A stretch of DNA of 54,705 nt, taken from positions 1 to 54,705 of IMG/VR virus record IMGVR_UViG_3300037842_001004, one strand, 5' to 3'. The position numbers and the translations under genes are program-made. Below, in pieces: positions 12,402-49,918 of this stretch. The notes below the pieces were generated by a model. That model had not been told where the DNA came from and searched no databases. It was given only the letters and a program-made list of their open reading frames with translations. How positions within the stretch are numbered: the stretch's first letter is position 1; the number at the start of each line of letters is the position of its first letter. The DNA is from a virus. Lineage: Duplodnaviria; Caudoviricetes.

Positions 12402-12408
12402 CGGTTGA

Positions 12409-18708: not shown

Positions 18709-18858
18709 CGGTAGACACGTCCGGGCCAATGGGCCTACCCTGTGGGTCGCGCCGGGCACCTCCGCGGCGCGCCCCGGGAACTCCCTGGGGGCGTTGGGAG
18801 TGGGGATACTACTCAACGCCTCCAGGCCCGGAACTTTTCGCGTGATAGCATCCGCCAC

Positions 18859-21800: not shown

Positions 21801-22509
21801 CTACCTACTCGACCCGAAGACGGGGCGGCCGACGGGAAAGGGCATGCGGCGCCTGTCGTGCGTCTTCTGCGTCTACGCCGACTCCCACGACCTCGTCGTC
21901 GCGGCCGTCCGCAACCCCGAGTTGTTCGCGAAGTACCTGGAGCTGGAGGAGCGGACCGGCTTCACCTTCCAGCAATCCAACTTCCCGAAGGGGTCGCCCC
22001 TGGGTCTCGCGGGCAAGCCGAAGAGTCTCCGGGCGGTCGCTGACGCCATCCGCGAGCACGGTGCGACAGAGAGCATCGTCCGCGAGATTTCCGCAGCTCT
22101 ACGGGACATCCAAGATGCGCGGTCGGCCGACCTCGGTCTGGTCCAGATTGGCGACCGGCGCGCAAGCCCTCATGCGCTCGCGAAGGCCGAGGGATCCCTG
22201 GGGGATCCTTCGTTGCACACGTTGGGGTCTGCGTTGCTCCACAACCTTCGCCAGCTCCGCGCCCACGGGAAGCGGCCGGAGTCCATCCAGTACGACTACC
22301 GGGCGAGCGGCGCCGTCGTGATGATCGACTGCGAGGGGGGCGCGTACTTCGTCGGTGCGCTGTCGTACCCGGACGCGTACGGCGGGAGCACGGCCGCAGC
22401 GGCCGCGGCCCGGTTCGCCGGCATCGGGTACGAGGAGCACGGCTCGCCGGACTCGCAGGGGTCGACCAGCGTTCCGGCGCGGGCCGAGCGGGCCAGGAGC
22501 GCACGATGA
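18859..22509 (+). CDS. giant cargo protein 1: shared leader + DarA C-terminal-like domain + PAPS-reductase-like domain with insertions
   Basis: FKGAGHKYIRRVRRNGRWVYYY leader (~19243-19600). YGARLRPVGSATVPPGY...HGTVTYEAP...YGL (DarA_C pattern, ~19699-19845). SSGGKDS, HADLG.VEW, RYCTSEHK, GLRAQES..R, WLPV..W, RLSCVFC. Confidence 0.8.
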   Translation: MSDPDLHKSNPVGGHPVTAGPVAGAGDPWGSAPGDAQLFPALAPLPDAYREQGRSILASGSSLALRAYRALLERAGVDRSRANVAVELAAGYLATLEAPTRLRKSALRDEVWEVIPGRFARSLRRLMFKGAGHKYIRRVRRNGRWVYYYNVTGGAGLGHVDEMHQGARFKLDQGGKSGHYEVLATEGGWVTIRHDESGHETKIRKTALQTMLHREHAELLEGHRARTRAELEAVGTHGSTKQRERLEAYSRRYMHTADLMDDPELRLMVWPKPVLADSRTTYGARLRPVGSATVPPGYTAIDSHGDFKHGTVTYEAPIEDPKHYGLVEIPSARRRLQVLAAAVADLKEYAAEHVEEAADDPGYFEQVVGHYIDKAGVHMDRAELAADVEAALRGLRPVVPYAEMAKPWETDADILAEHDIHTFAEVAAAGAEKVGQLLGDPARGKRIHGDATMRLGSKDARAMVLADHPSTHPDWVPDLSKVDFFILNSSGGKDSVAMLARAIEVADRQGFPRDRMVVVHADLGRVEWSGTKELAAQQAAMYGVRFEVVRREGQDLLQHIENRYYQLAARIEDTEALSAPPAAVSRVTRVAGLPLAEVATADLVPLGGRGARLVEAAAGRMPPGTRLRTANDHELVFEDESGRRTTLTRMRNTPTWTGEVTRAVHSERLVSGDPSISGTENRRRQNKRREVTTEHKTVAFLQTALRGKRSGSLTDMLAAAVSAVSAQVVAAPTPLTWGDLFARLPEPKKSGRKAEVARFKAEWAAAVAEIAAKLPERNVTYPPGFEDNPKLRQTMSRQMRAEQILASARRKQGQKEPGDPVDWGMPNPWPGDKRYCTSEHKRAVIGVLVTKAAEKMHGLPAWRAERDATRAKRKAIANDRIKVVAKAKGLKGAPRAAEKARITAQLAVSMPDPPEPPAPRILNIMGLRAQESEERAKKPAFYENKASSGVKQIDDWLPVQGWSEEQVWDRIAQEGMPSHDAYLLDPKTGRPTGKGMRRLSCVFCVYADSHDLVVAAVRNPELFAKYLELEERTGFTFQQSNFPKGSPLGLAGKPKSLRAVADAIREHGATESIVREISAALRDIQDARSADLGLVQIGDRRASPHALAKAEGSLGDPSLHTLGSALLHNLRQLRAHGKRPESIQYDYRASGAVVMIDCEGGAYFVGALSYPDAYGGSTAAAAAARFAGIGYEEHGSPDSQGSTSVPARAERARSAR

Positions 22510-25500
22510 CCAGGGGACGGCGCGCCCGCGCACGGCAACGACACCTTCGAGAGGCCGAGTGGGTCAAGATCCCGGGCTCGATAGGGTCCGACCTCTTCGA
22601 CCGCCTGGAGAAGGGCGGCGCCCACAAGTACGTGCGACGCGTCCGCCGCGGCCGGCGCTGGGTCTACTACTACGACGTCACGGGCGGCCACGGCATCGGG
22701 CACCACGAAGAGATGCACGCCGGGGCCAAGTTCCGGCTCAAGAGCCGGGGCCACGCGGGCCACTACGAGGTGCTCGAAGTCAACGGTGACGAGGTCGTCA
22801 TCGAGCACGACGAGAGCGGCCACAAGGTCCGCATGAGTAAGGCCGCGCTGGAGAAGATGTTGCTGCGCGAGCACGCGAAGCTCGTCGACTCGCACAAGGC
22901 GCGCACCAGGGCGGAGATGGCCGAGGTCGCGAGGTTCGGGTCCAAGCGCCAGAAGCGCGCGATGCGCGAGTACGTTCGGCGCTACGGGCACACGAGGCCC
23001 CTGCAGACCAACCTTCACGAGCAATACGGGGAGCAGGGCGCGCCGAAGAAGGGCGAGAAGGGGCACGCCGAGCTGAGCCCCGAGAGGCGCGACGCCCTCG
23101 TCCAGGCGGACGCCATCCTCGACCGCGCCCGGCAGGTTTGGGAGGACCCCGACCAGGGTTGGCATGTGGCCTACGCCGCACAGGTCGCACTCGGCGTAGC
23201 CGTGACCGAGGACTGGTTGTCGGAGGACAGCCTTGGGGGCGAAGCCGAACTCGACCCCGAGGACCTCCCGCACCTGCTCGGAGCGAGCCACCTGTCCCCG
23301 CAGGACGCCGCCGAAGCGATCGTGCTCGCGGTCGACGTCAACGAGCGCGTCCCGCGCCCCCTCATGCGGGAGATGCTCGCGGACACGATCGCGCCGGTCG
23401 GCAAGATGCGGCTCGTGAACGTCCCGAAGGCCGAGGCGTTGGAGTTCGTCCAGCAACATCACTCCGAGATGCCCGAGCCGAACCCCCGCGGCCTCATCTA
23501 CGCGATCGGGATCCGCGACGGAGAGCGCCTCGTAGCGGTCGCCACGGCGAGCCACCCGAGCGGGCGATGGGGCTCCGGGCGGACGGACATCCGCAATATC
23601 GTCGAGTTGACGCGGATCGCCTCCGACGGCACCGGCCGCAAGGGCGCAAGCTCGAAGCTCGCAGCGCGGGTGATCGACTTGCTCGACAAGAGCAAGCGGG
23701 GCAACCCGGACGAGCCCGGCCTGTTCGTCACCTACTCGCTCCTGAGCGAGGCTGGCACCACGTACAAGGCGCTGCGCGAGAAGGGTCTGAGGCCCGTCTC
23801 GCTTCGAGAGGGAAAAGAGGGCGGCGGCGGCGGCGCCCGCAAGGGGAACAAACTGGGCTACGCCGCGCCCGACAAAATCCGATGGGAGGCCGGCGACGCG
23901 GCCGGGCCGGCTGACTGGAGCCTGCTCGACCTCGCTGTCGGAGGTGACAAGCACGCCGAGGCGATGGCCGAGCAGGCCAAGCGCGAAGCCGAGCGCCTGG
24001 GGAAGGACCGCGCCGCCGCGAAGGCCGACCTCGCCGCGGCGCTCGCCACGGAAGGGCGGGAGGGAGCCGACGCGACGATGGCGGCAGCGGCTCGCGTCCG
24101 CGCGACCGGCGGGAGCCCCGAGAGCCTGCCAGGGTGGGAGCGGTTCGCCACGCACAGCCCCTGGGGACCCCGTGAGCCCGTCGTCGAGGCGGGCCGGCGT
24201 TACGGCACGGTGCGAGCCGCCGGCGTCGGCGCCGGGCACTCCTGGTACGTCTGGGACGCCAAAGAGAAGAAGGTCGTCGACCACGCGCCCGGGTCCGCCC
24301 ACGCCGCCGACGCCGCCGAGGCCCGAGCCAGCGCCGCGAAGTGGAACGACGCCGCCGGGCGTGGCGCGACCCCGCACGAAGAGGACGCCGCGGAGATGGG
24401 CGCGAAGTGGCGGGCGAAGGCCGTCGGCCTGGAGGACGGGCAGGGTCCCGGGCAACTGGGGAATTGGATCCGGTCGATGCGCGACAACGTGCGCATGCAG
24501 CCGGGCGTCGACATCAGCCAGCACGAGCACACCCGCAGCCGTGCCGCCCTGGCGGCGCTCATCACCGAGCGCACCCGCCGGAAGGACCAGCGATCCATCG
24601 CGAGGCGCGCCGCCCTGGCGAAGAAGCGCGAGAGGTCGCGCGCAGCGCACAACGCGGCCCGACCGCAGGAGGACAAGACCAGGAAGGCCGCAGAGTACGC
24701 CGAGCGGGCCGCGAAGGTCCGGCAGCAACCGCGGGCGCACGACCCCGGCTTTTCGCACTCCCGGTACTTCGCGTCCGGCTCGAACCGGCCCGGGGAGATC
24801 CGGGGGCTCGCAGACGCGGGGCACAACATCGGCGTCGCGATCGACAAGCTCAACGAGGCCGCGGTCGTCGAGATTCAGGGGCTCAAGGGCGAGCAGGTGA
24901 AGGTGTTCGTCGACTCCGGCGCGTTCAGCGAGGTGTTCGTCAACTTCCCGGGGAAGTCCGGCAAGTTGCCCGACCCGGACCGCCCGGTCGGGATCCACAC
25001 CGTCGCGCCGATTTCGGACGAGGTCTGGGCCGAGCGCATCGAGAAGATGGGGCGCCTGACGACGCTCACATGGGACAGGGGGGAGGGGCAGCTCTACCTC
25101 GTCGCGCCCGACAAGGTCGGCGACCAGGACGAGACCCTCCGGCGCCTGGAGAAGTTCGCCGACGATGTCCGTGGGTGGGAGGCCGCGAGCGCAACGGTGC
25201 TCGTGCCCGTCCAGAAGGGCTCGCGGCGGATGGCGGATATGTGGAAGCGGCAGATGGAGATTCTCGGGCCGGGGGATTGGGTCGCCGCGATCCCGATGAA
25301 GAAGGACGCGACGAGCGCCGAGGACCTCCGCGTCTTCCTCACCTCCGCCGACCCGAAGCCGACCCGGCTCCACCTCCTCGGCCTGGGTCTGAACAGCGAC
25401 GCCTATCCGGCGGTCAAGGCCGTACTCGACGAGGTCGGCCCGGAGATTGAGGTCAGCCTGGACAGCAACCGCAAGCGCGCGATCGTCGGGCACTACCAGC

Positions 25501-27293
25501 GCAAGGGCGAGAAGGGGCCGCCGAAGAAGGGGACCGCCGCGTTGCGCGACGCCGAGGCCAAGCTCAAGGGCCGCGCGTTCGAGGACCACGCGGACCCCGA
25601 CATGGCGACGATGTGGTCGGAGGACCGGGAGACCAGGATCGGGGAGTACACGACGCAGAAGTGGCGCAAAGCCATCGCGAAGGAGCACTCCCTGCCCGAC
25701 CGCGCCCTATTCGTCAGCGACCCGGCCGCCTGGATGGGGAAGCCCGCGGACGGAGGTCCGGTCAAGGGGCCTGACGGGTTGTTCCGAGAGGGGCCTGACG
25801 GGCACCCGGTCGAGACCTACGCGGAGCAGCACCCGAGCATCGACGCCGCCCTGCGCGACCAGTACGAGGAATGGTTCACGACCGGCGGCGGGAACACCTA
25901 CTACCGCCAGCGGCGGCAGAACCGAGAGATGATCAAGGACGAGGTCGACCCCCGGGCGCACCGCGACGCGAAGACCAGGGCGAGAGAGGTGAGAGTGGCG
26001 AAGGCCAAGGCCGCAGCGAAGCCCACCAGGAGGCTCGGCGTCTACGGGTGGAGCGACGCAACGAAGGCCGACTCGGCGGGGCTCCACCTCGACCAGGAGA
26101 CGGGTCGCGTGCATCACATCGACTGGGCGCCGAAGCGGATGTCGGCTGATGATGTCGAGGAGTTCAACGCGGCGCCCCGAGCAAAGGCCGCGGCCATGAA
26201 CCGCGTGCTCGAAGCCTACGACGCGGGGACGCGCGAGTTCGGGGACGGTAGCGGCCGCTACGCCGTCGTCATCCCCGACGCGTCAGAGCCTGGACGCTGG
26301 CGCTACAGCGAGTACGACAAGAGCGGGTTTGCCTCGCACCGGACGTTCGACACGCCGCACGAGGCCGCGGCTGCAGCGGCCGACGAGGGGTTCACCGAGG
26401 CCGCGCCCGGGACCCTCGACCAACTCGCCGTGACCGACGAATGGGCCGAGGGGACGCGCGCCGCTCGCGTGATGCAGATCGCGAACTCCGCCGGGGGCCA
26501 CGGCGCGTCCGCGGTGCTCGGTCACTTCGCGCGTAACGGCCGGTCTGCCGCCGCGCTCGCCGCCATCGAGGCCGCGGTGCCCGAGCTGCGCGCGGGGCGC
26601 GTGCCTGCCGCCCTGTTGCCTGCGGCGGCCGAGGCCATCAGCGGACGGCAGCCCGCCAACGAGCACCGGCAACGCTCATTCGTCGACGACGACGGGAAGA
26701 CGCATCACGTCAGCCCATCGGACGAGCAGATCGGCCTGATGGCGCAACGCGCCCACGGCACGCTCAACCCGCTTGTCGAGCGGTGGGTGGTGCTCAACGA
26801 GAAGGGATCGAAGACGAAGGTGCTCGACGCCTACGACGCGCTCCCGCCCGTCGAGAAGGCCGCGCTCGCCTTCCAGGTCGAGGACCTCGTCGGGGGCGAC
26901 GGCTACATCACCGCGTACCGGACGCTCAACCGCGGCGACGACCCGAAGCAGATGGGCGGCGCGTCGGTCTCGACGAACCCGAAGTGGAAGGACAAGGACA
27001 ACGCTCACGCGTTCCGCGTCCACCACAGCGACATCCTGCTCACGCACGAGCAACACGAGAGCGGCGCCGGCGCCAACGCCGTCGGCTCCGCCCTGGGCCG
27101 AAGCAAGGGGTTCGGGGGGTACGGGAGCGAACAGGAGGTGATCCTCAAGCGCACCGCCCAGGTCGAGCACCTGGGGCTCGCGAAGCCGCCACCGGCCCCC
27201 GCCCTCCTCCCGAACGATAGGAACGCGTCGACCAAGCCGACCAGCTCCGCGGTGCAACAGAGCCTCGGAGGCGAGGACTGGCTTGCAAGGTGA
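22506..27293 (+). CDS. giant cargo protein 2: shared leader + Mom/XF1762-like GNAT + TGT/DpdA-like + ADP-ribosyltransferase-like
   Basis: LEKGGAHKYVRR leader (~22611-22965). EALEFVQQHH...VELTRIASDG...ASSKL...VTYSLLSEAGTTYKA...KIRWE (~23406-23888). VFVDSGAFS...APDKVGD...PVQKG...LHLLGLG...SLDS (~24763-25480). AYR...SVSTN...EQEVIL (~26905-27150). Confidence 0.75.
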   Translation: MTRGRRARARQRHLREAEWVKIPGSIGSDLFDRLEKGGAHKYVRRVRRGRRWVYYYDVTGGHGIGHHEEMHAGAKFRLKSRGHAGHYEVLEVNGDEVVIEHDESGHKVRMSKAALEKMLLREHAKLVDSHKARTRAEMAEVARFGSKRQKRAMREYVRRYGHTRPLQTNLHEQYGEQGAPKKGEKGHAELSPERRDALVQADAILDRARQVWEDPDQGWHVAYAAQVALGVAVTEDWLSEDSLGGEAELDPEDLPHLLGASHLSPQDAAEAIVLAVDVNERVPRPLMREMLADTIAPVGKMRLVNVPKAEALEFVQQHHSEMPEPNPRGLIYAIGIRDGERLVAVATASHPSGRWGSGRTDIRNIVELTRIASDGTGRKGASSKLAARVIDLLDKSKRGNPDEPGLFVTYSLLSEAGTTYKALREKGLRPVSLREGKEGGGGGARKGNKLGYAAPDKIRWEAGDAAGPADWSLLDLAVGGDKHAEAMAEQAKREAERLGKDRAAAKADLAAALATEGREGADATMAAAARVRATGGSPESLPGWERFATHSPWGPREPVVEAGRRYGTVRAAGVGAGHSWYVWDAKEKKVVDHAPGSAHAADAAEARASAAKWNDAAGRGATPHEEDAAEMGAKWRAKAVGLEDGQGPGQLGNWIRSMRDNVRMQPGVDISQHEHTRSRAALAALITERTRRKDQRSIARRAALAKKRERSRAAHNAARPQEDKTRKAAEYAERAAKVRQQPRAHDPGFSHSRYFASGSNRPGEIRGLADAGHNIGVAIDKLNEAAVVEIQGLKGEQVKVFVDSGAFSEVFVNFPGKSGKLPDPDRPVGIHTVAPISDEVWAERIEKMGRLTTLTWDRGEGQLYLVAPDKVGDQDETLRRLEKFADDVRGWEAASATVLVPVQKGSRRMADMWKRQMEILGPGDWVAAIPMKKDATSAEDLRVFLTSADPKPTRLHLLGLGLNSDAYPAVKAVLDEVGPEIEVSLDSNRKRAIVGHYQRKGEKGPPKKGTAALRDAEAKLKGRAFEDHADPDMATMWSEDRETRIGEYTTQKWRKAIAKEHSLPDRALFVSDPAAWMGKPADGGPVKGPDGLFREGPDGHPVETYAEQHPSIDAALRDQYEEWFTTGGGNTYYRQRRQNREMIKDEVDPRAHRDAKTRAREVRVAKAKAAAKPTRRLGVYGWSDATKADSAGLHLDQETGRVHHIDWAPKRMSADDVEEFNAAPRAKAAAMNRVLEAYDAGTREFGDGSGRYAVVIPDASEPGRWRYSEYDKSGFASHRTFDTPHEAAAAAADEGFTEAAPGTLDQLAVTDEWAEGTRAARVMQIANSAGGHGASAVLGHFARNGRSAAALAAIEAAVPELRAGRVPAALLPAAAEAISGRQPANEHRQRSFVDDDGKTHHVSPSDEQIGLMAQRAHGTLNPLVERWVVLNEKGSKTKVLDAYDALPPVEKAALAFQVEDLVGGDGYITAYRTLNRGDDPKQMGGASVSTNPKWKDKDNAHAFRVHHSDILLTHEQHESGAGANAVGSALGRSKGFGGYGSEQEVILKRTAQVEHLGLAKPPPAPALLPNDRNASTKPTSSAVQQSLGGEDWLAR

Positions 27294-27689: not shown

Positions 27690-27725
27690 AGCATGGACAG
27701 CATGGACAGCATGGACAGCATGGAC
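27690..27725 (+). repeat. 9-bp tandem repeat (AGCATGGAC)x4
   Basis: Read directly; encodes MDSMDSMDSMD. Confidence 0.9.
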
Positions 27726-30700
27726 GCTCGATCGAGCCGAGCGCGCGGACGGGCAGGGTCCGTGCGAGACCGGGGCGATAAGGCGCGCGAGCGGCTTCTC
27801 AAGTCCGGCGAGCGAGCCGGTCACAAGTACCTGTACCGGGTCAAACACGGCCGCGGCTGGCGCTACGTCTACAAGGATGATGTGGCGCACCACGCCCGAC
27901 CCATCTCGGACCGCGAGCGTTGGCGCCGCGACAGGTCACCGAAGGCGGACCAGGAGACGGCGCACAGGGTCGCGGCGCACGGTATTGTGCCGCACGCCGG
28001 CGTGCTGCGAGACGACGAGGTCCACGGCGCGTCGAGGGTCCTGGGCGGACACCGGGTCGACGAGAGCCGACTCAACTCAGCCGGTGTGCCGATCAAGGTC
28101 CCGAACCACAATCCGCACGACGAGTGGAACCGACATCGAGAGATTCTCGCCGCCCGGATCGGCGTTGTGGGCGACAGCATCGCCCACAACGAGAGTCGGC
28201 TCTCGACCTGGACGAACGGCACGGGCGAGGGCGTCACCTCCGCGGCCGAGCTGGTCGAGTTGGCGGGTGCGGCTGAGAGCGGGTTCAAGGACGTGATGCA
28301 CGCCGCCTGCGGCGCCGTCGCCGGTGCGACGACCTTCTACGGCGAGAAGAAGGACAAGGACGGGAAGGTCACGGGCGACTACGCCATCAAGGGCGCGAAG
28401 CGTCTAGGCGAGAAGGTCGAGGCGTGGGCGAAGGACGACGTCGAGCAGGGCCGGATGAGCAACATCGAGGGCGCACGCCTCCGTGTGCTCCGCAACGAAG
28501 TCAGCGACTGCTTGCGCGGCTCGATCCTCGTCGACCACCCGGAGCAGATCGGCCACGCCGTCGCGGCGCTTCGCGAGCACGCGAGGGCCGTTGGAGCTGA
28601 CATTACGGTCGAGAACAAGTGGGGCAACGAACACAAGGGCGCCTATCTGGCGGTGCATGCCCGGATGCTCATGCCGTCCCCAAAGGGGATGATCCGAACC
28701 GAGGTGCAGATCCACCCGAAGGCGCTCATCGAGCCCAAGGAGGAGATGCACAAGGTCTACGACGTGACGCGCAAGCCGGGCTTCGACAAGGCGAAGGACA
28801 AGGACGCCTACAACGCGAGCAGCAAACTCGTTTGGACGGCCGGCATGCGTCGACTGAACGAGGACCGCGGGCACGGGCAACTGACGGACCAAACGTCGCC
28901 GCATGCCTCACCCGAGGTTCACGAAGAGGCCGCACGGGCGCACGAGGGCGTAGCCAGGATGCACGAGGTCCGTGGCGCCCAGGCGGTCGGGGTGGCACGG
29001 GGTGGCGAGAAGGCAACGGACAGGCACGCGCGCTTCGCGAACGCCGCCCGATCGATGGCCCGAGCGCACCGCGTCCAAGCCTCCGCGAAGCGCGGTATCC
29101 GTCCGTTGGACGTCGGGGAGACTCACCAGCACCTCAGTTCGGACGAGCACGACAAACTCGCAGGGCTTCACGAGATGTCGGCCGTCGAGGACGAGCACGG
29201 TGCCTGGGGCATGAAGCACGGCGTGGACCGCGAGGTGGCCCTGAACCGCGCCGCTGTGTCCCGCCTCACAGCCGTCGGCCATCAGCAGGCAGCCCGGAAT
29301 GTTCGCATTGCCGCGATGGCCCGGCCGCTCCTGAAGGCCGAGGACCTTGAGAAGGGTCGGATGCGCGGGGGTAAGTACCTCAAGAAGCGTTGGACCGGCT
29401 CCCGTTGGGCCTACACCTACCCGGACGACGTCCACCCGGGGAAGCAGCGTCGCGCCATCATGGAGGACTTGGAGCACCACGTCCGACACGGCCACCTGCA
29501 CTCCGAGACGATCGCCGACCACGGGACCCGCCTCGGGGAGCTGGACAAGAAGGTCCGCGTCCGAGCGGCCGTCCGAGCTGGCGCCGATGCGTCCGAACTG
29601 GCTGCGATGAGTTGGGACGACCGCGAGGCGGCGATCGCCGCGAAGGTCGGTGAGCGCCCCTGGCGACGGAGCGCGGGGAAGGGGAAGACCGGGCGCGTGG
29701 GGTCGCAGGACCCGATGACCGGCACCTCGCTCGGGCAGTCCAGGGCGAACAAGGCACGGGCGAAGGCGGCCCACGTCGGCTCTGTCGGCGCTCAGGCCAA
29801 CCCACCGCGGCTGCACCCGGCCGCGACGGCATCGCGTGCGCAACAACTCGCGACGCACTCGGCCGCGGTCCACATCGAGACGCACCGGAACCCGCCCGAG
29901 GGCGGCGACCGGTACTCGGCCGTGCGGACCAAGTTGCACCAGGAGGCCATCAGCGCCCACACCGAGGGGAAAACGAAGGGGCACGACCGGCCGCACGCGA
30001 TCGTGATGATGGGCGGGCCAGGGTCCGGCAAGGGGACCGTCCTCAAGAAGATCATGGGGAAGGGTGCGATGGACAACTACGTCCACGTCGACCCCGACGA
30101 GATGAAGCAGCGCGTGCCCGAGTACCAGATCGCGCGTGCCCGGAACGCCAAGGACGCGGCGTCGGTGGGTCACGAAGAGTCGTCGCACATGGCGGTGAAG
30201 CTCCACCAGCACGCCGTCGCAGCTCGACACAACATCCTGCTCGACGGCACCGGGAAGAACGCGAAGAAGCACATCGCGAAGATCAAGGCCCTGAAGGCGG
30301 CCGGCTACCACGTCACCGTCATCAGCCCGCACATCGGGGTCGAGGAGGGCGTGGCGCGCGTCTCCCAACGTGCGGACCGGTCTGGTCGCTTCGTCCCGAC
30401 CGACGTCGTGCGCGGGGCGTACGGCAAGATCCCGGGCAACTTCCACGACGTGGCCGCGCACGCCGACGACGCGATGTTGATCGACAACCACAACGGCCCG
30501 CGCGTCATGTGGCACAAAGACGAAGACGGCGAGCACGTCAGCCACGCCGACCACTACTCCCGCTTCCGCGAGGACGCGGCGGAGTCGAGGAAGGGGCAGG
30601 GGAAGGACGCACGCGAGGCGACGGCCGCGGCGTCGGCCGCGTCTGCCGACTCCGACCAGGGCCACCTGCAGGCCCACCTTCGTCACCGTCGCCTGTCGAG

Positions 30701-31244
30701 CGCGGCGACGTCCGCCGGCAACGAGGGCCTCGCCGCGCAACACAAGGCCGCAAGCCGAGCCCACCTGGAGGCCGCGCAATCACCCACGGCGGAGGGCCGC
30801 ACCCGCGCAGCGTCCGTCGCTGCGCTACACGAGCACGCCACGACCCACCCGGGGCACGACCAGAGCATCGAGTGGCACCACAAGCAGGCCGGGTTGGTAC
30901 ATCGGGCCGTGATGGCCGGCGCAGGGCATCGCGTCACGCCGGATATGCGAGAGGCCGGGAAGCACTCGCCAACGTCCCCGACAAAGCCAGATCCAGCCGA
31001 GGCACACGAGCAGGCGGCCGCGGGCCACGATCGCGTGGCCGCCGGGCACGAGCACGCCACCGGGCAGCGTCACGCGGACGCCCAGGGGAACACCGTTCCG
31101 CCCGACGCGCACAAGGCGGCGGCGAAGGCCCACCGGTCGGCAGCGCAGGCCCACCGCGACGGCCGCGGGGACGCGCAGGCGTTGACCTACAAGGCCGACG
31201 ACGCATCAACCCGAGCCCATGGCTGGAACACACGAGGCGCTTGA
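27693..31244 (+). CDS. giant cargo protein 3: two short leaders, RelA/SpoT-like nucleotidyltransferase + zeta-toxin kinase + His/Ala repeats
   Basis: LLKSG...HKYLYRVK...WRYVY. IKGAKRLGEK...SDCLRGSI...YLAVH...TEVQIH...HKVYD (~28385-28770). LEKG...KYLKKRWTGSRWAYTY. MGGPGSGKG...VDPDEMK...HEESS...NILLDGT...GRFVP (~29994-30510). Confidence 0.85.
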   Translation: MDSMDSMDSMDARSSRARGRAGSVRDRGDKARERLLKSGERAGHKYLYRVKHGRGWRYVYKDDVAHHARPISDRERWRRDRSPKADQETAHRVAAHGIVPHAGVLRDDEVHGASRVLGGHRVDESRLNSAGVPIKVPNHNPHDEWNRHREILAARIGVVGDSIAHNESRLSTWTNGTGEGVTSAAELVELAGAAESGFKDVMHAACGAVAGATTFYGEKKDKDGKVTGDYAIKGAKRLGEKVEAWAKDDVEQGRMSNIEGARLRVLRNEVSDCLRGSILVDHPEQIGHAVAALREHARAVGADITVENKWGNEHKGAYLAVHARMLMPSPKGMIRTEVQIHPKALIEPKEEMHKVYDVTRKPGFDKAKDKDAYNASSKLVWTAGMRRLNEDRGHGQLTDQTSPHASPEVHEEAARAHEGVARMHEVRGAQAVGVARGGEKATDRHARFANAARSMARAHRVQASAKRGIRPLDVGETHQHLSSDEHDKLAGLHEMSAVEDEHGAWGMKHGVDREVALNRAAVSRLTAVGHQQAARNVRIAAMARPLLKAEDLEKGRMRGGKYLKKRWTGSRWAYTYPDDVHPGKQRRAIMEDLEHHVRHGHLHSETIADHGTRLGELDKKVRVRAAVRAGADASELAAMSWDDREAAIAAKVGERPWRRSAGKGKTGRVGSQDPMTGTSLGQSRANKARAKAAHVGSVGAQANPPRLHPAATASRAQQLATHSAAVHIETHRNPPEGGDRYSAVRTKLHQEAISAHTEGKTKGHDRPHAIVMMGGPGSGKGTVLKKIMGKGAMDNYVHVDPDEMKQRVPEYQIARARNAKDAASVGHEESSHMAVKLHQHAVAARHNILLDGTGKNAKKHIAKIKALKAAGYHVTVISPHIGVEEGVARVSQRADRSGRFVPTDVVRGAYGKIPGNFHDVAAHADDAMLIDNHNGPRVMWHKDEDGEHVSHADHYSRFREDAAESRKGQGKDAREATAAASAASADSDQGHLQAHLRHRRLSSAATSAGNEGLAAQHKAASRAHLEAAQSPTAEGRTRAASVAALHEHATTHPGHDQSIEWHHKQAGLVHRAVMAGAGHRVTPDMREAGKHSPTSPTKPDPAEAHEQAAAGHDRVAAGHEHATGQRHADAQGNTVPPDAHKAAAKAHRSAAQAHRDGRGDAQALTYKADDASTRAHGWNTRGA

Positions 31245-31308: not shown

Positions 31309-31497
31309 ATGGCTAAGAAGCACGCCGGCATACCGCTATCTGAGATGATCGCGCGCGCCAACAAGTTCGGCGAGGCGGGGAAGCCCGCGCTGGACTACGA
31401 TCCAGACGAGCCGAAGACGTACGAACGCGAGGCGTTCGTTCCAAACCACCGGGAAGCAGAGGACGACCACCTCGGCGACGACCCCGTCGACGAGTGA
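31309..31497 (+). CDS. small acidic protein, candidate antitoxin/immunity
   Basis: Own promoter and GAGGAGG RBS; directly after the zeta/RelA-like gene. Confidence 0.6.
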   Translation: MAKKHAGIPLSEMIARANKFGEAGKPALDYDPDEPKTYEREAFVPNHREAEDDHLGDDPVDE

Positions 31498-31869: not shown

Positions 31870-34800
31870 GTGAACCCCGACCGAGCCAACCGAGCCCGCT
31901 TGCGCAAGTCGTTGGCGGGCATCGGTGCATCAGCAGCGCACGTCGCAAACGTGGCGAGGCTTCGCCAGCATCCGATGGGTCCGCCGCCAGGGCGCAACCG
32001 CAAGCGTTGGCCCTACCAGGGCACCGTCGACTTCCAAGGTCTGTCCGTTCGGGTCGAGAACGCCGCCGGCGACTTCCGCCGCGGTGTGTCGGACGACGGG
32101 ACGCCGTGGAAGACCAAGATGCGGGTCCACTACGGCGAGTTCGTCGGGACCCGCGGGACGGACGGCGACCCGGTCGACTGTTTCATCGGGCCACGCCGCT
32201 ACGCCCCGTTCGCCTACGTCGTCCACGCCCGAGACCGCCGCACCGACACCTACGACGAGTGCAAGGTGATGCTCGGGTTCTCGACCAGGGCCGAGGCCCT
32301 GGCGATGTACCGCGCGCACTACGACGGGACCGGCTGGGTCGACGGCGTCCGCAAGCTCGCGGTCGGCGAGCTGCGCGCGTGGCTCAGGGACCCCCGCAAC
32401 CGCGGCCGCAAGATCGGCGGCGGCCAAGAGCTGCGCAAGGCGATCCCGTTGCCGGCCGACCTCGGCCGGGCGCTCTGGGATGCCCAGGAGGGCGACCTCA
32501 CCAAAGGCAAGGCGCACAAGTACATCCGACGCGTCCGCAGGAACGGCCGGTGGGTCTACTTCTACAAGGTCACCGGCGGAGCTGGGCTCGGCCACCACGA
32601 CGAAATGCACGTCGGCGCCAAGTTCCGAATGCCGCTGACCTACTCGTCCAACCCAGAGAACCCGGTCGCGGGGCACTGGGAGGTCATCGGCGAGACCAAG
32701 GACGGGAAGATCCGGGTTCGTCACGACGAGTCCGGGGCCGAGCGGACGACGACCCGCGAGCAATTCTCGGAGGCCCTACGCGAGCATCACCGGGAGAGCA
32801 TCCGCGACGTCGGCCAGCGCGCGCACGAGGAGCACGTCGCAGCGTCGCTATACGGCTCGACGCGCCAACGAGAGCGCGCCGCGGAGCGCGTCCGCGAGCG
32901 GTTCCGGCAGTTCCCAGAGATGCAGCGGCTGCTATTCATCGCGCCGCCGGCGAAAGAGCCGAAGTGGCGCCCAAAGGGCCACCGGGAGCACGAGCACCTG
33001 AAGGCCGCCTTCCGCCTCTGCGAGAAGTACATCGACAACCCCCGCGGCCAGCTCGGACCCGCCGACACCGAAGCATGGAAGCCCGACGACAACGCCCGCC
33101 GGGCCGCGCGGCTGGCGCTCAAGGCCCTGGAGTTCTACGGGCACGACTTCGCGACCGCGACGCGCCTCTCGAAGCGAGCCGAGGCCCTGGGTATCGGTTC
33201 GTCGAAAGCCTTCGTCGAGCGGCTCCAGGCCATCGCCGCGGGCGACCCCAGCCTCAACCGGACGGGGCGCTACTACGACGTCAGCGCCTACGCCATGCGC
33301 GCCCTCTTCGCGTTCGAGCACGCCAAGGGTGAGCTGGCGATCGACCGCAAAGAGGACCTGAAGGGGAACGTCGCTCTCTACCTCGACACGCTCAGGCACG
33401 AGGCCCGGCGCAACTACATCAAGGGCCACGGGAACCGCGGGGGCATGGAGGCCCTGCGCGACATCCTCGGCCAGATCCGCACGAAGCGCGGGGTCAAGGC
33501 GTTCGAGGACATCCTGGCTTTCACGTCCAGCGCCAAGAGCGGTCCTGGACGTCGCGTGCGCCTCGCCCACGACGTCCTCGACCACGCCATCGCGACCGCA
33601 CAGGGGCGTCTGAAGTCGGCCGACAGGGAGATGGAGCGCCTGGGGCGCAGCGACCTGACCTCGACGTCGGGCCGCGCGACGCCGACCCTGGACGCCGCCA
33701 TCGAGAGCGACATCCAGGCCGTGCGCATCGCGAGCGGCTCGCTCACCGGCGCTCACCAGGAGTTCGGCCACGTCCTCGTGAGCGCCGACCGTCGCGTCCA
33801 CACCGAGAACTGGGAGTCGCGCGTACCTGACCACCGATTCTCCCAACTCCACCCGTCGAACTCGATGGTCCAACGCGCGTTCCGCGAGCGGTTCGGCGCC
33901 TCCGTCCACATCGAGGACGCCGTCTTCGACACGTTCAACTCACCACCGAGAGGACCGACGCCCAAATCCATGGAGAAGCGGTTCAAGTCCCTGGAGAAGG
34001 CGGCGTGGGGCATCCACGGCATGGGCGAGGGCGCGGCCGAGTGGGCGACCAACGCCGACAAGGCCGCCGCGGCAGAGGTGCGGATGGCGTCGGAGATGTC
34101 CACCGAGATGCGGGCCGACGCGCTGCGCAGCGTCTGGACGGCCCTGGAGGATATGGAGAAGTCGACCGGGCCTATCGACCTCTCCGGCCTACCCATTGTC
34201 ATCAGCGACCGCTTCGTGGGCACCGGGGCCGCGGCGCACTACAACGGGACGCACACGGCCGCCGAGTTGGGTGCCGACAAGCTCGTCAACGTCGACGTCG
34301 AGCCGAAGAACCGCGACTACCACAACGAGAACGCCGTCCGCGTGAAGCCGCACATCGCGCTCGGACTCAGGGCGGACAAGTCCCTCGGGCACGAGTTGGC
34401 GCACTACATCGAGAACCGGCTCACCATCCGCCCTGGCGGGCAAGATGCCGTTCACGACGCGCTGGCAAGCGCGGGGTTCGAGTGGGCGCACGCGAACGAC
34501 CCGTTCTTCTTCGAGCCAGAGAACCGGGAGTCCTGGGCGAAGGAGAAGCACGACCCGGGGATGCCGAAGGCGATCCTTGGGATGCTCCGTCGCGCGAAGC
34601 ACGTCGGAGGGCTCGTGTCGGAGGCTCAAGACGCCGGGTTCGCGGGCGGCGGGAAGTACCTGTCGACAATCGTCGCTCGCATCCTTCACTGGCGGGCGAA
34701 GGCCGACAAGCCAGCGTACCACGGCGACGGTAGCGCCGAGATAGCGAGCCTCGCAGACGGGATGCTCGCCAAGCTGCGCAAGCTCCCCGGCGGCCGCGAG

Positions 34801-35184
34801 GTCATCGATCTGCAGGAGGCCATCCAGAGCACCGGTGCCTACCAGCGGTTCGAGGAGATGGACAAAGAAGACAACCGAGGAAACCGGGGCATCATCGACG
34901 AGCTGTTCGGCCGCAAAGACGCGGCGTCGAGGCGCTACTGGGAGTCGGGGACGGAGATGACGGCGCGCGCCGTCGAGCAGTACCTCTACGAGGCCGGCGC
35001 GGCGCGAGGCGAGGTCAACACGACCCTGACGCACCCGCACTACAGCGGCGAGCCCGTGTTAGAGAGGTCGTCGGCCTACTTCGATCCGCACGAGTTCAAC
35101 AAGAAGATCGCCCCAAAGGTCAAGGCGCTCCTGGCGTCGATGGGCGAGCACATGACAAAGGCGTTGCTAGGGGGTGAGCGTTGA
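31870..35184 (+). CDS. giant cargo protein 4: inorganic pyrophosphatase-like + shared leader + HExxH/LPD1-like domain
   Basis: VRVENAAG...HYG...GTDGDPVDCFIG...YDECKVMLGF (polyvalent-protein InPase pattern). LTKGKAHKYIRR leader (~32503-32890). LGHELAHYIE at ~34384. RYWESGTEMTARAVEQYL (LPD1 pattern). Confidence 0.85.
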   Translation: MNPDRANRARLRKSLAGIGASAAHVANVARLRQHPMGPPPGRNRKRWPYQGTVDFQGLSVRVENAAGDFRRGVSDDGTPWKTKMRVHYGEFVGTRGTDGDPVDCFIGPRRYAPFAYVVHARDRRTDTYDECKVMLGFSTRAEALAMYRAHYDGTGWVDGVRKLAVGELRAWLRDPRNRGRKIGGGQELRKAIPLPADLGRALWDAQEGDLTKGKAHKYIRRVRRNGRWVYFYKVTGGAGLGHHDEMHVGAKFRMPLTYSSNPENPVAGHWEVIGETKDGKIRVRHDESGAERTTTREQFSEALREHHRESIRDVGQRAHEEHVAASLYGSTRQRERAAERVRERFRQFPEMQRLLFIAPPAKEPKWRPKGHREHEHLKAAFRLCEKYIDNPRGQLGPADTEAWKPDDNARRAARLALKALEFYGHDFATATRLSKRAEALGIGSSKAFVERLQAIAAGDPSLNRTGRYYDVSAYAMRALFAFEHAKGELAIDRKEDLKGNVALYLDTLRHEARRNYIKGHGNRGGMEALRDILGQIRTKRGVKAFEDILAFTSSAKSGPGRRVRLAHDVLDHAIATAQGRLKSADREMERLGRSDLTSTSGRATPTLDAAIESDIQAVRIASGSLTGAHQEFGHVLVSADRRVHTENWESRVPDHRFSQLHPSNSMVQRAFRERFGASVHIEDAVFDTFNSPPRGPTPKSMEKRFKSLEKAAWGIHGMGEGAAEWATNADKAAAAEVRMASEMSTEMRADALRSVWTALEDMEKSTGPIDLSGLPIVISDRFVGTGAAAHYNGTHTAAELGADKLVNVDVEPKNRDYHNENAVRVKPHIALGLRADKSLGHELAHYIENRLTIRPGGQDAVHDALASAGFEWAHANDPFFFEPENRESWAKEKHDPGMPKAILGMLRRAKHVGGLVSEAQDAGFAGGGKYLSTIVARILHWRAKADKPAYHGDGSAEIASLADGMLAKLRKLPGGREVIDLQEAIQSTGAYQRFEEMDKEDNRGNRGIIDELFGRKDAASRRYWESGTEMTARAVEQYLYEAGAARGEVNTTLTHPHYSGEPVLERSSAYFDPHEFNKKIAPKVKALLASMGEHMTKALLGGER

Positions 35185-36926
35185 GCGTCTTTACCGACAT
35201 GTTCGAGCTGGCGGGAGACGCCATCGAGGGCGCCGCCGACGGCCTCGTGAAGGCCCGGCGCGCCCGGCGCGGCCTCACGGAGACAGAGACAGCGGTCACC
35301 CAGGAGCGCGGCAAGGGCCGCGCGGGCATCGTCACCGACCCCGACTTCGAACTGAAGAACCGCGGCGGGTACGGCAAGGGTGACTTCGCAGAGCGCCCGA
35401 GCGGCCAGACCTGGGACACACTACGCCGCGTCGCTGCAGCCCCCCCGGTGGTCGCGCTCCACAACGTCCAGAAAGACGGCATCGCGGAGTTCTGCAACCC
35501 GCAGGACAACCCGCGGCTTCCGGGGTTCGGCGTCCGCATGCGGGACAAGGGCGCCCGCTACACGCCGTCGAAGGCTGAGGCGAAGGAACTCCACCGGTCG
35601 TCGCGCTTCATGCAGCATTGCGGCCACCTGAACGACATCGGGGAGCTGACGACGAGGACCGACTTCGAGGGGCTCGTCCGGCATTGCATGCCCGACTCCC
35701 TCCGCTTCGACCAATTCTGCATGCAGGTTGAACCGAAGCTCGGTTGGCAACCCGGCGCGATGACTCAGAAGTTCGTACCGCACCGCCTGCACTGGATCCC
35801 GGGCCACACGATCCGCCTCGCGATGCCGCCGACCGACGGCACCCCGTTGAAGGGCTCCGACCTCAAGACCCACCGGTACGTCCAGGTCGACCGCCACGAC
35901 GAGGTGCTCGCCAAGTTCGCGCCGCAGCAACTCATGTTCGGCGTGCTCAACCCGCACCCCGACATCGAGAACGCCGGCTACGGTTGGTCCGACCTGGAGA
36001 AGCTCACGGACGTGTTGACGGCGTGGCTCTACGGCTACGCGTACAACCGGAACTACTTCAAGCAGGGCGCCAACGTGAAGGGCATCTTGCACTTCGACGA
36101 GGAGCCGCCGCGCGGCCAACAACGCCGGTTCGAGCGGTACTTTCACGCGCTCATCACTGGGGTGGGCAACGCGCACAAGGTGCCGATCGCCTGGGGCGGC
36201 AAAGCGAGCTGGTTGAGCCTGGGCCAGAACAACCGCGATATGGAGTTCAACGAGTGGATGAACTTCCTCACGAAGCTCCTATGCGCGATCGCCGGCGTTG
36301 ATCCGGCTGAGATTCACTTCGTGTTCGGCAACACGGGCCAGTCAAGCGCGATGGGGAGCGCCAGCGTCGACGAGAAGATCACCCAGAGCCGCGCGCGCTG
36401 GCTCCGCCCGAGGGTCCGCGCGCTGTTCAAGTGGCTGAACCACTACGTGATCTGGCCCATGAACCCGGACGTCGAAATCTTCGCGACCGGGATCGACATG
36501 GAGAGCGCCGACGCGGAGCACAAGCGGTACATGGACCTCGCTGAGAAGACGCATTACATCGACGAGGTCCGCGCCATGATGGGCGACGGGCCGCTCGAAG
36601 CCGTGCCCGAGGATATGCAGAAGAACCCCGGCAAGGTGATCCTCAACCAGACGTGGCAGCAGGCGACGCAGAGCATGGACGGCATGGAAGAGGGCGGCGG
36701 CGGCGAGGAGGGCGGCGAGGAAGGCGGGGGGGGCGAGGGCGCACCCGAGGACGGCGACGACAAGGCCGCCGAGGACCGTCTGATGGGCGGCGTTGACGAC
36801 GAGGGGGGTGACAGCGGCGGCGGTGGTGGGGATGATGGTGGTGAGCAGGCCGAGGGCCTGTACGATGCGAGCATGATCAAGTCCGGCTCGGCTCGTGATA
36901 GAGTCCGAGCCACTTTGGAACTCTGA
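35181..36926 (+). CDS. portal protein
   Basis: DSLRFDQ...TIR...YVQV...YGWSDLE...YNRNYFKQGANVKGIL...DMEFNEW...GVDPAEI...IDEVRAMMG. Confidence 0.9.
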   Translation: MSVFTDMFELAGDAIEGAADGLVKARRARRGLTETETAVTQERGKGRAGIVTDPDFELKNRGGYGKGDFAERPSGQTWDTLRRVAAAPPVVALHNVQKDGIAEFCNPQDNPRLPGFGVRMRDKGARYTPSKAEAKELHRSSRFMQHCGHLNDIGELTTRTDFEGLVRHCMPDSLRFDQFCMQVEPKLGWQPGAMTQKFVPHRLHWIPGHTIRLAMPPTDGTPLKGSDLKTHRYVQVDRHDEVLAKFAPQQLMFGVLNPHPDIENAGYGWSDLEKLTDVLTAWLYGYAYNRNYFKQGANVKGILHFDEEPPRGQQRRFERYFHALITGVGNAHKVPIAWGGKASWLSLGQNNRDMEFNEWMNFLTKLLCAIAGVDPAEIHFVFGNTGQSSAMGSASVDEKITQSRARWLRPRVRALFKWLNHYVIWPMNPDVEIFATGIDMESADAEHKRYMDLAEKTHYIDEVRAMMGDGPLEAVPEDMQKNPGKVILNQTWQQATQSMDGMEEGGGGEEGGEEGGGGEGAPEDGDDKAAEDRLMGGVDDEGGDSGGGGGDDGGEQAEGLYDASMIKSGSARDRVRATLEL

Positions 36927-37829: not shown

Positions 37830-39092
37830 GTGCGCGTCGATGTCGACGCTGAGCCGGGCGAACTGACAGCGAGGATCGGCGAGTGGGTCCCCGCCATCCT
37901 GGCGAAGGCGGACGCCGACCCGGAGTTCGTCAAGGCCGTCAGCGACGCCCTGGCACCCCACGGCGGGACGGGCGAGCCCTGGCCCTGGCCGCTGGGCCAC
38001 GAACTCGAACACGAGGTCACAGAGGCCGTCAGGCGCCGCTACGGGTTGCTACTCGACCGGCTCGCCGCGGAACCCATGTTCAAGCCCGAAGGCGACGCCC
38101 TGGTGAAGGCCGCCGCGAGGGCGTGGATCACCGCGGACCGGCTCCACCGTCTGCGCGACATCGTCTCATCGGAGCACGCGGCACTCGCGGTCGAGCTGTT
38201 CGGTCCCGGGGTCCTGAGCGCGAGCCAACTCGCCCAGCTCCGGCAGGCCGGGATCCTCACGGACGCCGACGTCGCGCGCGGCCGCCGCGACGGTCTGCGG
38301 ACCGGGCTCGGTGATGCACACTTGCTCGGCGCGGTCATCGCGGCCGACCCTGGCAGGGGGCGCACGCTCACCCTGGCTGAAGCGCGGTCCCGCGCACGCC
38401 GACTCGCCCCGACCACGATGCGCGACCGGCAAGCGGCCGTCGCTCGCCTTCGCGGCGGGCAACAGATCGTCGGCCTGGGGAACCGGGTGGCGGACGACCT
38501 CACGACGATCGCGATCGTCAACGACGACGAGCGCGCCCAGCGGTACCGGGCGAGGGTCTCGGAGGCGGTCGCGCAACAGGCGGAGGAGGGCTTCGACGCT
38601 GGCGAGCTTCGCCAACGTATCGCTCAGGCCCTGGAGGGCGACTACGCGCGCGACATCAACCGGATAGTCATCACGGAGACCCACGCGGCCATCCAGGGTG
38701 GCGTCGCGGCCGGCTTGCTCGACCGCTACGGTGACGAGGTCGACTGCGCGGTGGTGCCGGCCCCCGGTGCTTGTCCCGTCTGCCACAGGCTCTACACCGG
38801 CCCCGACGGGCCTATCGTCTGGCGCGCGGGCCTATTGCCCCCGTCGACGGTGAACTTCCAGCGCAAGGCGGCCGCCCGGGTCGCCTGCATTCCGCCGGCG
38901 CACCCCCATTGCCGTTGCGAGCTTGTCTACGTTCCGGCCGGGTGGAGGGTCAGTGAGGAGGGGCAGGTGTTGCCCCCGCTGAAGAAGTCCGAGGTCCCCG
39001 ACGTGGACGTCGACCCCGTGGTCGACGATCATGGGGACCAACACGCGCACCCGTTCACCTGGGGCCGTCACTTCGGAGATGACAGATGTTGA
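37830..39092 (+). CDS. head morphogenesis (MuF / SPP1 gp7-like) protein
   Basis: RIVITE...ACPVC..LY...PPAHPHCRC. Confidence 0.85.
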   Translation: MRVDVDAEPGELTARIGEWVPAILAKADADPEFVKAVSDALAPHGGTGEPWPWPLGHELEHEVTEAVRRRYGLLLDRLAAEPMFKPEGDALVKAAARAWITADRLHRLRDIVSSEHAALAVELFGPGVLSASQLAQLRQAGILTDADVARGRRDGLRTGLGDAHLLGAVIAADPGRGRTLTLAEARSRARRLAPTTMRDRQAAVARLRGGQQIVGLGNRVADDLTTIAIVNDDERAQRYRARVSEAVAQQAEEGFDAGELRQRIAQALEGDYARDINRIVITETHAAIQGGVAAGLLDRYGDEVDCAVVPAPGACPVCHRLYTGPDGPIVWRAGLLPPSTVNFQRKAAARVACIPPAHPHCRCELVYVPAGWRVSEEGQVLPPLKKSEVPDVDVDPVVDDHGDQHAHPFTWGRHFGDDRC

Positions 39093-49746: not shown

Positions 49747-49862
49747 ACCTTTTCACCTTCCCGCCTCACCGAGGAGGGCAAACCGGATTGACAGGCGAGC
49801 GGCTCCGGCCGTAGCCTTGGCCGCACAGACGCGATAGCGACACCAACCGTGGCCTATATGAG

Positions 49863-49895
49863 AGGCGCCCTGGGGGAAACCCCGCGGCGCCTTTT
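49863..49895 (+). terminator. intrinsic terminator-like hairpin
   Basis: AGGCGCC...GGGG-AAA-CCCC...GGCGCCT followed by TTT. Confidence 0.5.
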
Positions 49896-49918
49896 CTGCG
49901 TTTTGGCCCTGGAGTTTT

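Follow-up and report, generated by a model that had tools for sequence, protein, structure and literature searches.

What does a tailed phage do with two toxin-type enzymes, a RelA/SpoT-type synthetase and a zeta-type kinase, joined in one open reading frame (ORF) among its head genes? The question is raised by a plus-strand ORF of 1183 amino acids (aa) at positions 27693..31244 of the IMG/VR virus record IMGVR_UViG_3300037842_001004 (Duplodnaviria; Caudoviricetes), whose 54,705 bases (GC content 67-72%) were analysed as a whole and are called the window hereafter. The answer favoured here is that the ORF is a phage-type polyvalent protein composed of two fused cargo cassettes, which would be packaged into the head, cut apart by the prohead protease and ejected with the DNA. 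Each cassette would consist of a leader (the motif L-x-K-[G/S/A], a few residues and a basic/aromatic beta-hairpin, here called the KY hairpin), an enzyme and a His/Ala-rich tail. We give this whole chain of inference a probability of roughly 0.55, and its parts differ widely in strength, the identities of the two enzyme domains being almost certain.

The frame is open over all 1183 codons without disruption, and its GC content at third codon positions (GC3, 0.87) is that of the remaining genes. It is recorded on six contigs in the 1183-aa form and on five in a 1180-aa form that begins at the second ATG (27702), in assemblies from Logan, ENA and JGI, so that faulty assembly does not account for the fusion. 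The 5' end (27693-27725) is made of about 3.7 copies of the 9-base tandem repeat ATGGACAGC, which encodes MDSMDSMDSMD and supplies several in-frame start codons. In leader 1 (27795..27872), the KY hairpin motif GHKYLYRVKHGRGWRYVY (aa 43-60) comes after the candidate cleavage site L35-L-K-S38. This leader precedes a small alarmone synthetase-like domain of RelA/SpoT type (aa 170-395, 28200..28877), recognised by profile and fold, and a first His/Ala-rich tail (aa 396-545, 28878..29327). The junction LLKAEDLEKG (aa 546-555, 29328..29357) holds two L-x-K-[A/G] motifs and opens into leader 2 with the KY hairpin motif RMRGGKYLKKRWTGSRWAYTYP (aa 556-577, 29358..29423), a P-loop kinase domain of the zeta-toxin family (aa 760-943, 29970..30521) and a second His/Ala-rich tail (aa 946-1183, 30528..31241), all on the plus strand.

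A preliminary description of this DNA had read the same order of parts from the letters and the translated frames, and the motifs that it quoted all lie where it placed them: SDCLR (aa 271-275), YLAVH (318-322), TEVQIH (336-341) and LLKAEDLEKG in the first half and at the junction, and GGPGSGKG (aa 774-781), DPD (800-802), HEESS (827-831) and DGT (851-853) in the kinase. Its His/Ala linker and tail are likewise confirmed by composition, with 8.7% His and 19.3% Ala in aa 396-545 and 10.9% His and 23.9% Ala in aa 946-1183, compared to 2.4% and 12.9%, respectively, in 7861 aa of non-giant genes. As for the leaders that it had assigned to each enzyme, KY motifs are indeed found at aa 45 and aa 561.

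The synthetase is strongly diverged, and a direct search of the PDB sequences with this half of the ORF gave no match. A phmmer search with aa 170-406 against 1.84 billion representative sequences retrieved 84 proteins at an expect value (E) of at most 1e-3, 14 of them at 1e-10 or below, and the Pfam family PF04607 (RelA_SpoT) matches 11 of the 84, at best with 1e-06. A profile built from the 84 homologs and compared with the PDB recovered SaEAS (8vx3, 1.9e-18), Tas1 (6.9e-06), RelP (6.9e-06) and 3l9d (6.1e-04). In this profile alignment, the invariant Asp of the family, D272 in the ORF, faces the Ala of the crystallised D121A mutant of SaEAS, a mutant described as inactive (PMC12691689), and E337 and Q339 align with the EVQ of the SaEAS E-x-Q strand. 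All 11 invariant or near-invariant columns of the family are kept (K233, D272, R275, N308, Y318, H322, E337, Q339, H341, H353 and Y356). An AlphaFold2 model of the domain, built with the homolog alignment, reached a predicted local distance difference test score (pLDDT) of 92.8, and its best Foldseek match was again SaEAS 8vx3 (2.7e-08; TM 0.58/0.66), followed by RelP, Tas1, RelQ, CapRel and FaRel2, so that the top matches are all RelA/SpoT homolog (RSH) synthetases. Because the homolog profile, the predicted fold and the conserved catalytic residues agree, we conclude that aa ~170-400 form a diverged RSH-type pyrophosphokinase, as the preliminary description had proposed. The best profile and fold matches, SaEAS (PDB 8VX3) and Tas1/Apk1 (PDB 6OX6), have the catalytic Asp and the E-x-Q strand in common with the ORF; they differ from it by an identity of about 20% and by their delivery, SaEAS being Sec-exported and Tas1 an effector of the type VI secretion system. 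The domain appears to resemble SaEAS and Tas1, which act on nucleotides, more closely than CapRel and FaRel2, which act on tRNA; this is only a hint at its acceptor.

The kinase half is matched directly by the Pfam family Zeta_toxin (PF06414) over aa 760-943, with an E value of 4.6e-32 and 111.5 bits for a cut-off of 22.3, the alignment covering profile positions 8-197 of 199. Among solved structures, PezT (2.3e-05) and zeta (2.6e-05) were recovered. Alignment with zeta (1gvn) places K780 on the Walker lysine K46, D802 on Asp67, D851 on E116 and T853 on T118. In zeta, E116 and T118 of the E-G-T motif both matter. Asp67 and the P-loop lysine are described as catalytically important (PMC5923241, in the passages covered). 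The substrates reported for the family are UDP-N-acetylglucosamine (UDP-GlcNAc) or UDP-N-acetylmuramic acid; another member, AvrRxo1, is described as phosphorylating NAD and not UDP-GlcNAc. The ORF thus shares with Zeta, PezT and AvrRxo1 the PF06414 P-loop kinase domain, the Walker Lys, the equivalent of Asp67 and the GT motif; it differs from them in that Asp replaces E116 and that no epsilon/PezA-type antitoxin gene was recognised beside it. The preliminary identification as a zeta kinase therefore holds. In 50,697 phage records searched by tblastn with the ORF, 15 were matched, in the zeta part only and over 13-16% of the query. A literature hit for "zeta" in a Microbacterium phage paper (PMC7302621) was discarded, as the word is there the name of a phage and irrelevant to the kinase.

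The two halves are known apart. One relative, P0002, is 64% identical over that half and comprises three leaders, the synthetase and a His/Ala tail (49% identity between the tails); its C-terminus, "...RIRAAKG", falls at the point where the ORF of the window runs on into LLKAEDLEKG. P0002 begins directly at a KY motif, and may be an N-terminally truncated gene call. A gene of 560-562 aa with one leader, the synthetase and a tail is represented by P0003 and by a 92% identical copy in loci L002/L003. In L002 it belongs to an array made of a leader protein of 1860 aa, a leader with a C5 DNA methylase, this leader with the synthetase, a leader protein of 932 aa, the portal, a MuF-like protein and a further leader protein. 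A third synthetase gene, of 329 aa with a different leader (P0004), occurs in L051. Conversely, eight relatives of the zeta half were retrieved at 30-46% identity, none of them with a synthetase. In P0087, P0090 and P0093, the kinase is immediately preceded by a KY leader; in P0088, one leader stands ahead of the kinase and another farther along the chain, and P0089 has a longer-looped leader that was recognised by eye. A zeta-type Walker A pattern was found among the 84 synthetase homologs only in the protein of the window itself. The zeta half of the window was not found in the related records G001 and G002, both incomplete, and no IMG/VR locus related to the whole ORF or to P0002 was found. 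Since relatives carry either the synthetase cassette or the kinase cassette alone, the ORF is, with high probability on this comparison, a fusion of two cassettes. The proposal that two cargo genes were fused, together with the suggestion that the halves be sought as separate genes in relatives, is in this way supported, with the synthetase alone in P0002, P0003/L002 and P0004/L051 and the kinase alone in P0087, P0088, P0090 and P0093.

What joins the cassettes to the remainder of the phage is the leader. Its pattern can be written as L-x-K-[G/S/A] ... KY..R....W.Y.Y, and a six-frame scan of the window for K-Y-x-x-[KR]...W-x-Y-x-Y gave six sites only, all in five large plus-strand ORFs that start at 18742, 22506, 27693 (the two sites at aa 45 and aa 561), 31870 and 39086. 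The ORF at 27693-31244 thus belongs to a group of five giant genes with leaders that flank the portal and MuF-like genes. The four others, all on the plus strand, have in common a module of about 150 aa that surrounds the KY motif, with 37-53% identity and E values from 1e-25 to 1e-41. They are gene A (18742..22509, 1255 aa; module at aa ~151-300), gene B (22506..27293, 1595 aa; module at aa 19-167, no further domain recognised), gene D (31870..35184, 1104 aa; module from aa ~192) and gene E (39086..43039, 1317 aa; module at aa 35-188). Gene D has an InPase domain (aa 50-172) ahead of the module, and the leader therefore need not be N-terminal; the same protein has a HELAH sequence and a C-terminal LPD1 domain. 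Gene A also carries a PAPS-reductase-like domain (aa 960-1081; Pfam 2.8e-08, phrog_424 9.8e-19), and a leader paired with PAPS_reduct was found in L033 as well. A model of the long module (pLDDT 70.4) comprises an L-E-K-G-G loop below 50, the KY hairpin, a small beta-barrel at 84-92 and helices, and the loop is predicted to be flexible. With Foldseek, nothing was found for the module at E<=0.001, Tudor, Agenet and SH3-like entries appearing at E 0.05-0.3 only; VIA-align gave Z scores of 7.1 on the helical part and 6.7 on a Tudor-like barrel, a range that the tool calls common. As these matches are weak, no fold is claimed. Complex prediction of the module with the scaffold or the MuF-like protein gave a score of 0.00 ("no answer"), which is uninformative either way.

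Beyond the window, a total of 27 IMG/VR contigs carry the KY module, at 39 loci whose GC is 0.39-0.75. The module had no match among the 50,697 phage records and no usable match in the ESM Atlas, and a word-indexed search of longer proteins returned two, one of them the window's own. All 31 distinct KY motifs in 28 non-redundant ORFs of other records have an L-x-K-[G/S/A] at most 14 residues upstream. Pfam matched 12 of 24 leader ORFs at E<=1e-4, the cargo being ddrB-ParB in four (one also with GNAT and one with TMEM65), LPD1 in three, and InPase, PAPS_reduct and DUF6884 in one each; the C5 DNA methylase of L002 adds to these. Two leaders in one ORF were seen in L012, L036, L039, L042 and P0088, hence multi-cassette chains recur. 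An ORF of 310 aa in G001 (4422-5351, within L005) is barely more than the leader module, with four L-x-K-[G/A] for 0.29 expected, and indicates that the module can exist without a cargo enzyme. P0091 has a zeta kinase and an InPase within one chain. Members of the set formed by P0089-P0092, P0004 and L051 show variant short leaders at the same place, one reading L-x-K-G-G-P-[YF]-x-G-P-R-G-G-K-W-A-D-P-Q-H-T-I-P-W, with L-x-K-[G/A] upstream, and another reading N-R-P-G-L-x-L...R-W-x-R. In the long modules of the window (19159-19731, 22527-23105, 32413-32979 and 39158-39730), His, Asp and Glu residues are invariant in nine of nine aligned copies (H33, H79, H94-D95-E96 and H116 in the numbering of alignment A2), which suggests a metal site or a catalytic site. 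Finally, a scan of 185,579 species genomes found the leader module in only two, L073 and L074; the latter (CP070713.1) is a Myxococcales metagenome-assembled genome, which hints weakly at the hosts that this lineage of high-GC phages may have.

The motif before the hairpin recurs in head proteins. The class L-x-K-[G/S/A] was set once the leaders were known and then counted in other genes, with expectations taken from shuffles. The five head-assembly proteins of the window, all encoded on the plus strand, hold 14 such motifs for 2.03 expected. The probable scaffold (50753..51550, placed by its position between the genes for protease and capsid protein) has six, all L-x-K-[S/A], for 0.46 expected, the head maturation protease (49862..50743; phrog_1028, 1.2e-21) three for 0.25, and the MuF-like head morphogenesis protein (37830..39092) three for 0.17, each value being reached in 0 of 500 shuffles. 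The motif is not enriched in the portal protein (35181..36926; PF04860, 6.9e-14; one for 0.54) nor in the major capsid protein (51605..53119; phrog_752, 1.7e-56; one for 0.61). The single copy in the capsid protein, DLLK|A at aa 29-33, lies in the region of the N-terminal propeptide. Five motifs, for 3.57 expected, were counted in the 29 other non-giant genes, seven control patterns occurred 0-5 times, and G, S or A follows 14 of the 25 L-x-K of the head group, compared to a background of 0.266 (binomial p 0.0018).

Related phages give a similar picture. In G001, whose capsid protein is 59% identical to that of the window, the MuF-like protein has three motifs for 0.30 expected, the ORF before the capsid gene three for 0.32 and the capsid protein four for 0.42, and 23 ORFs from 35115 to 59599 have none for about 3.6 expected. 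The ORFs at the scaffold position in G003, G005 and G004 have nine, seven and eight for about 0.7 expected (0 of 200 shuffles), and genome-wide totals, obtained with a crude ORF filter, were 39 for 26.5, 51 for 26.5 and 25 for 11.6 expected. The motif lies near the N-terminus, just before the conserved body, in five of five capsid proteins. Counted from the predicted start, it begins at aa 28-32 in four of them; in G001 it begins at residue 55, counted in the stop-to-stop frame. In the protease, a conserved copy follows the catalytic part in four of five, G001 having I-A-K-S there. Because the five phages compared are related, their sites do not count as independent events. The 1183-aa ORF has only three copies, one ahead of leader 1 (aa 35-38) and two in the junction (aa 546-549 and 552-555), and none inside the enzyme domains. 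From its enrichment at scaffold, protease, MuF-like and capsid-propeptide positions, L-x-K-[G/S/A] emerges as a candidate site of the prohead protease, and this pattern in the head proteins, together with the prohead protease that the phage encodes, lends indirect support to cleavage at the junction. We put the chance that this protease cuts the junction at about even. A precedent exists in SPN3US and T4, where ejection proteins are processed and targeting propeptides removed. In the parts of that work covered, the internal proteins and Alt of T4 and the ejection proteins of SPN3US and phiKZ lose their propeptides at a short consensus motif that is also found in the capsid protein, the portal and the C-terminal part of the protease (PMC10052503). 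Unlike in those phages, the candidate motif here would be L-x-K|[G/S/A], and the cut would also part two enzymes from each other.

By analogy with its relatives, the enzyme of cassette 1 would most likely move pyrophosphate from ATP to adenine or guanine nucleotides, yielding (p)ppApp or (p)ppGpp, and the kinase of cassette 2 would most likely phosphorylate UDP-GlcNAc or another nucleotide sugar, or else a related nucleotide, for example NAD. The protein would be loaded into the procapsid, where the prohead protease would cut L-x-K-[G/S/A] behind its Lys, first at aa 37 in leader 1 and, in the junction, at aa 548, at aa 554 or at both. Both enzymes would then be ejected with the DNA and would disturb the nucleotide pools and the supply of cell-wall precursors of the host early in infection. 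Packaging into the head is probable, given the gene position, the hallmarks of polyvalent proteins and the fusion partners of homologs. Injection, which the preliminary description also assumed, is suggested by the position near the portal and MuF-like genes and by the precedent of polyvalent proteins, and the host-inhibiting effect and the substrates are those that relatives would predict.

Several points weigh against this reading. The two leaders of the ORF correspond only to the ~25-residue KY core of the longer module (~150 aa) seen in genes A, B, D and E and may behave differently, and the leader of gene A reads M-F-K-G instead of L-x-K-G. Head proteins have A or S after the Lys (seven each, never G), whereas most leaders have G, and shuffles ignore helical periodicity, so that the occurrence of L-x-K-[S/A] might reflect the structure of helical scaffolds. 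The synthetase half gives no Pfam match even at E up to 10; in the kinase, zeta E116 is replaced by Asp, and the stretch around zeta E100 does not align cleanly. About 60% of the phage lies outside the window, the CheckV estimate of completeness being 40%. The small ORFs that flank the gene (27283-27642 and 31309-31497) had no informative Pfam match, and no antitoxin or immunity gene was recognised there. Moreover, next to the KY hairpin L-x-K-[G/S/A] is invariant across a GC range of 0.47-0.75 and could equally well belong to a fold or a binding site and not be a cut site. This last point leads to an explanation that we consider unlikely, in which the cargo enters the virion uncut, as one bifunctional chain, with L-x-K-G acting as part of the leader fold or as a docking element for portal, scaffold or DNA. 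The string KGAGHKY by the hairpin is nearly invariant in the 31 leaders of other records, as would be expected of a structural or binding element, the N4 virion RNA polymerase and ArdC are delivered unprocessed according to the passages covered of Iyer et al. (2017, PMC5512222), and ORFs with several leaders recur. The enrichment of the motif class at the places at which prohead proteases cleave (the capsid N-terminus in 5/5, the scaffold and the C-terminal part of the protease) and the predicted flexibility of the L-E-K-G-G loop speak instead for cleavage.

The enzymes may also be separated by other means, which we hold to be improbable: a zincin-like peptidase of a neighbouring polyvalent protein, or an internal translation start of cassette 2. 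Metallopeptidase (MPTase) domains have been proposed as a processing device of polyvalent proteins (Iyer et al., 2017; PMC5512222), and HExxHxIE sequences are present in gene D (HELAHYIE, upstream of LPD1, 34400-35181) and in the 932-aa leader protein of L002 (HEYGHQIE, 11968-14766); both may be zincin-like peptidases, though Pfam and PDB sequence searches confirmed neither. For an internal start, the junction DNA GAGAAGGGTCGGATG offers the Shine-Dalgarno-like GAGAAGGG four bases before an in-frame ATG at 29362, and P0002 starts directly at the KY motif. Yet GAGAAGGG itself consists of the codons of the conserved L-E-K-G, and P0002 is possibly truncated. There is likewise a low probability that the protein is not packaged and is no toxin as such, and that it works inside the cell in nucleotide counter-defence or in a metabolic set with the neighbouring InPase, acting on signalling nucleotides or NAD. 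The activity of AvrRxo1 on NAD, the proposal that conflict nucleotides may be targets of InPase and RelA/SpoT domains (in the passages covered of PMC5512222) and the lack of a recognised immunity gene beside the ORF would fit such a role, which agrees poorly with the synthetase-domain homologs fused to portal, VgrG and prohead protease modules: among the 84 homologs, the fusion partners were a Mu portal (two), VgrG (one), the prohead protease S78 (one) and a virion RNA polymerase domain (one).

That one or both domains are catalytically dead and form a bulk internal head protein is very improbable. The synthetase has no direct match to PF04607, either with aa 170-406 (E up to 10) or with the whole ORF (E up to 0.1), and the kinase shows a conservative change of zeta E116 to Asp (D851-G-T853 opposite E116-G-T118). 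However, the 11 conserved columns of the 84-member synthetase alignment, including D272, E337 and Q339, are all present, the kinase retains K780, D802 and the GT motif, and the frame is intact with a GC3 of 0.87; at these positions the catalytic residues, whose absence the preliminary description had named as a reason to give up its proposal, are in place.

The favoured reading, two enzymes loaded as one chain and released by the prohead protease, places the ORF among known systems. For polyvalent proteins, the passages covered of Iyer, Burroughs, Anand, de Souza and Aravind (2017, PMC5512222) list RelA/SpoT, InPase, ddrB-ParB and LPD1 among the phage-type domains and note a zeta-like kinase in polyvalent proteins from conjugative elements and in MuF fusions. 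As in the ORF, unrelated effector domains occur there in one giant polypeptide among virion genes, and processing into units is proposed. An RSH-type and a zeta-type domain lie here in one frame of 1183 aa, and the neighbouring gene D has InPase and LPD1; with these two effector domains and such neighbours among head genes, the ORF is a polyvalent protein in the sense of that work. A zincin-like MPTase domain, present in about 36% of polyvalent proteins and not obligatory, is lacking, as the ORF has neither HExxH nor a Pfam peptidase match. Unlike in proteins with an MPTase, a KY leader marks the cassettes, and the candidate processing enzyme is the prohead protease. MuF polymorphic toxins of temperate phages, with an adenosine 3'-pyrophosphokinase of Apk2 type, similarly put a RelA/SpoT-family toxin on a head-associated delivery module (PMC5576092, PMC12226406 and PMC12691689, in the parts covered). 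The ORF differs from them in having no PF04233 match, a separate MuF-like gene, no recognised adjacent immunity gene and a second enzyme fused. Proteins of this category are known, and either domain has on its own been described before from head-associated proteins of phages. In Pfam, PHROG, the phage records and the literature searched, nothing corresponds to the joining of the two enzymes in one chain, to the leader cassette with its KY hairpin or to the candidate maturation motif L-x-K|[G/S/A]. RelA/SpoT and zeta together are not described in the passages covered of PMC5512222, where "zeta" occurs once; its supplementary LPD1-40 alignments may hold the KY module under another name.

Concerning the surroundings, the ORF sits between the terminase gene (12990-15239) and the portal gene, in a window whose high-GC3 frames lie almost all on the plus strand. 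The MuF-like gene of the window has weak PHROG matches only; the L002 gene matched to it by position alone, after the portal, is hit by Phage_Mu_F at 3.1e-05, under the Pfam gathering cut-off. The capsid protein matches 742 phage records, every one below 60% identity, which points to an uncultivated lineage; the 12 matches listed, at 25-28% identity, come for the most part from SPO1/Twort-like phages that infect Firmicutes. Both ORFs adjoining the gene are small and acidic. The one at 27283-27642 (119 aa, GC3 0.82) has a zinc-ribbon-like CxxC...CxxC motif, the one at 31309-31497 (62 aa) is preceded by the strong Shine-Dalgarno sequence GAGGAGGAGGG, and the small ORF found 3' of the L002 synthetase gene has no evident likeness to the flanking one of the window, compared by eye only.

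A wider reading, which we advance tentatively, is that the leader, L-x-K|G with the KY hairpin, may be a portable load-and-release tag placed on arbitrary enzymes that the prohead protease would trim free in the procapsid. The cargo would then include an alarmone synthetase, a zeta kinase, a pyrophosphatase, a C5 methylase, a ParB nuclease and an acetyltransferase, in a lineage with Herelleviridae-like capsid proteins. If so, polyvalent proteins and arrays of single-cargo genes would be interchangeable forms of one cassette system, and the ORF studied here would be a two-cassette fusion caught in the act. For polyvalent proteins, embedded metallopeptidases are the only means of release put forward until now; if the model is true, a tag of about 25 residues and a three-residue protease motif would provide a concrete, testable rule for how large effectors are addressed to the head and set free as separate enzymes. 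The phage would co-deliver an alarmone synthetase and a kinase of cell-wall precursors, activities otherwise belonging to toxin-antitoxin, type VI and exported toxins, and a family of cargo cassettes would be defined in an uncultivated high-GC phage lineage.

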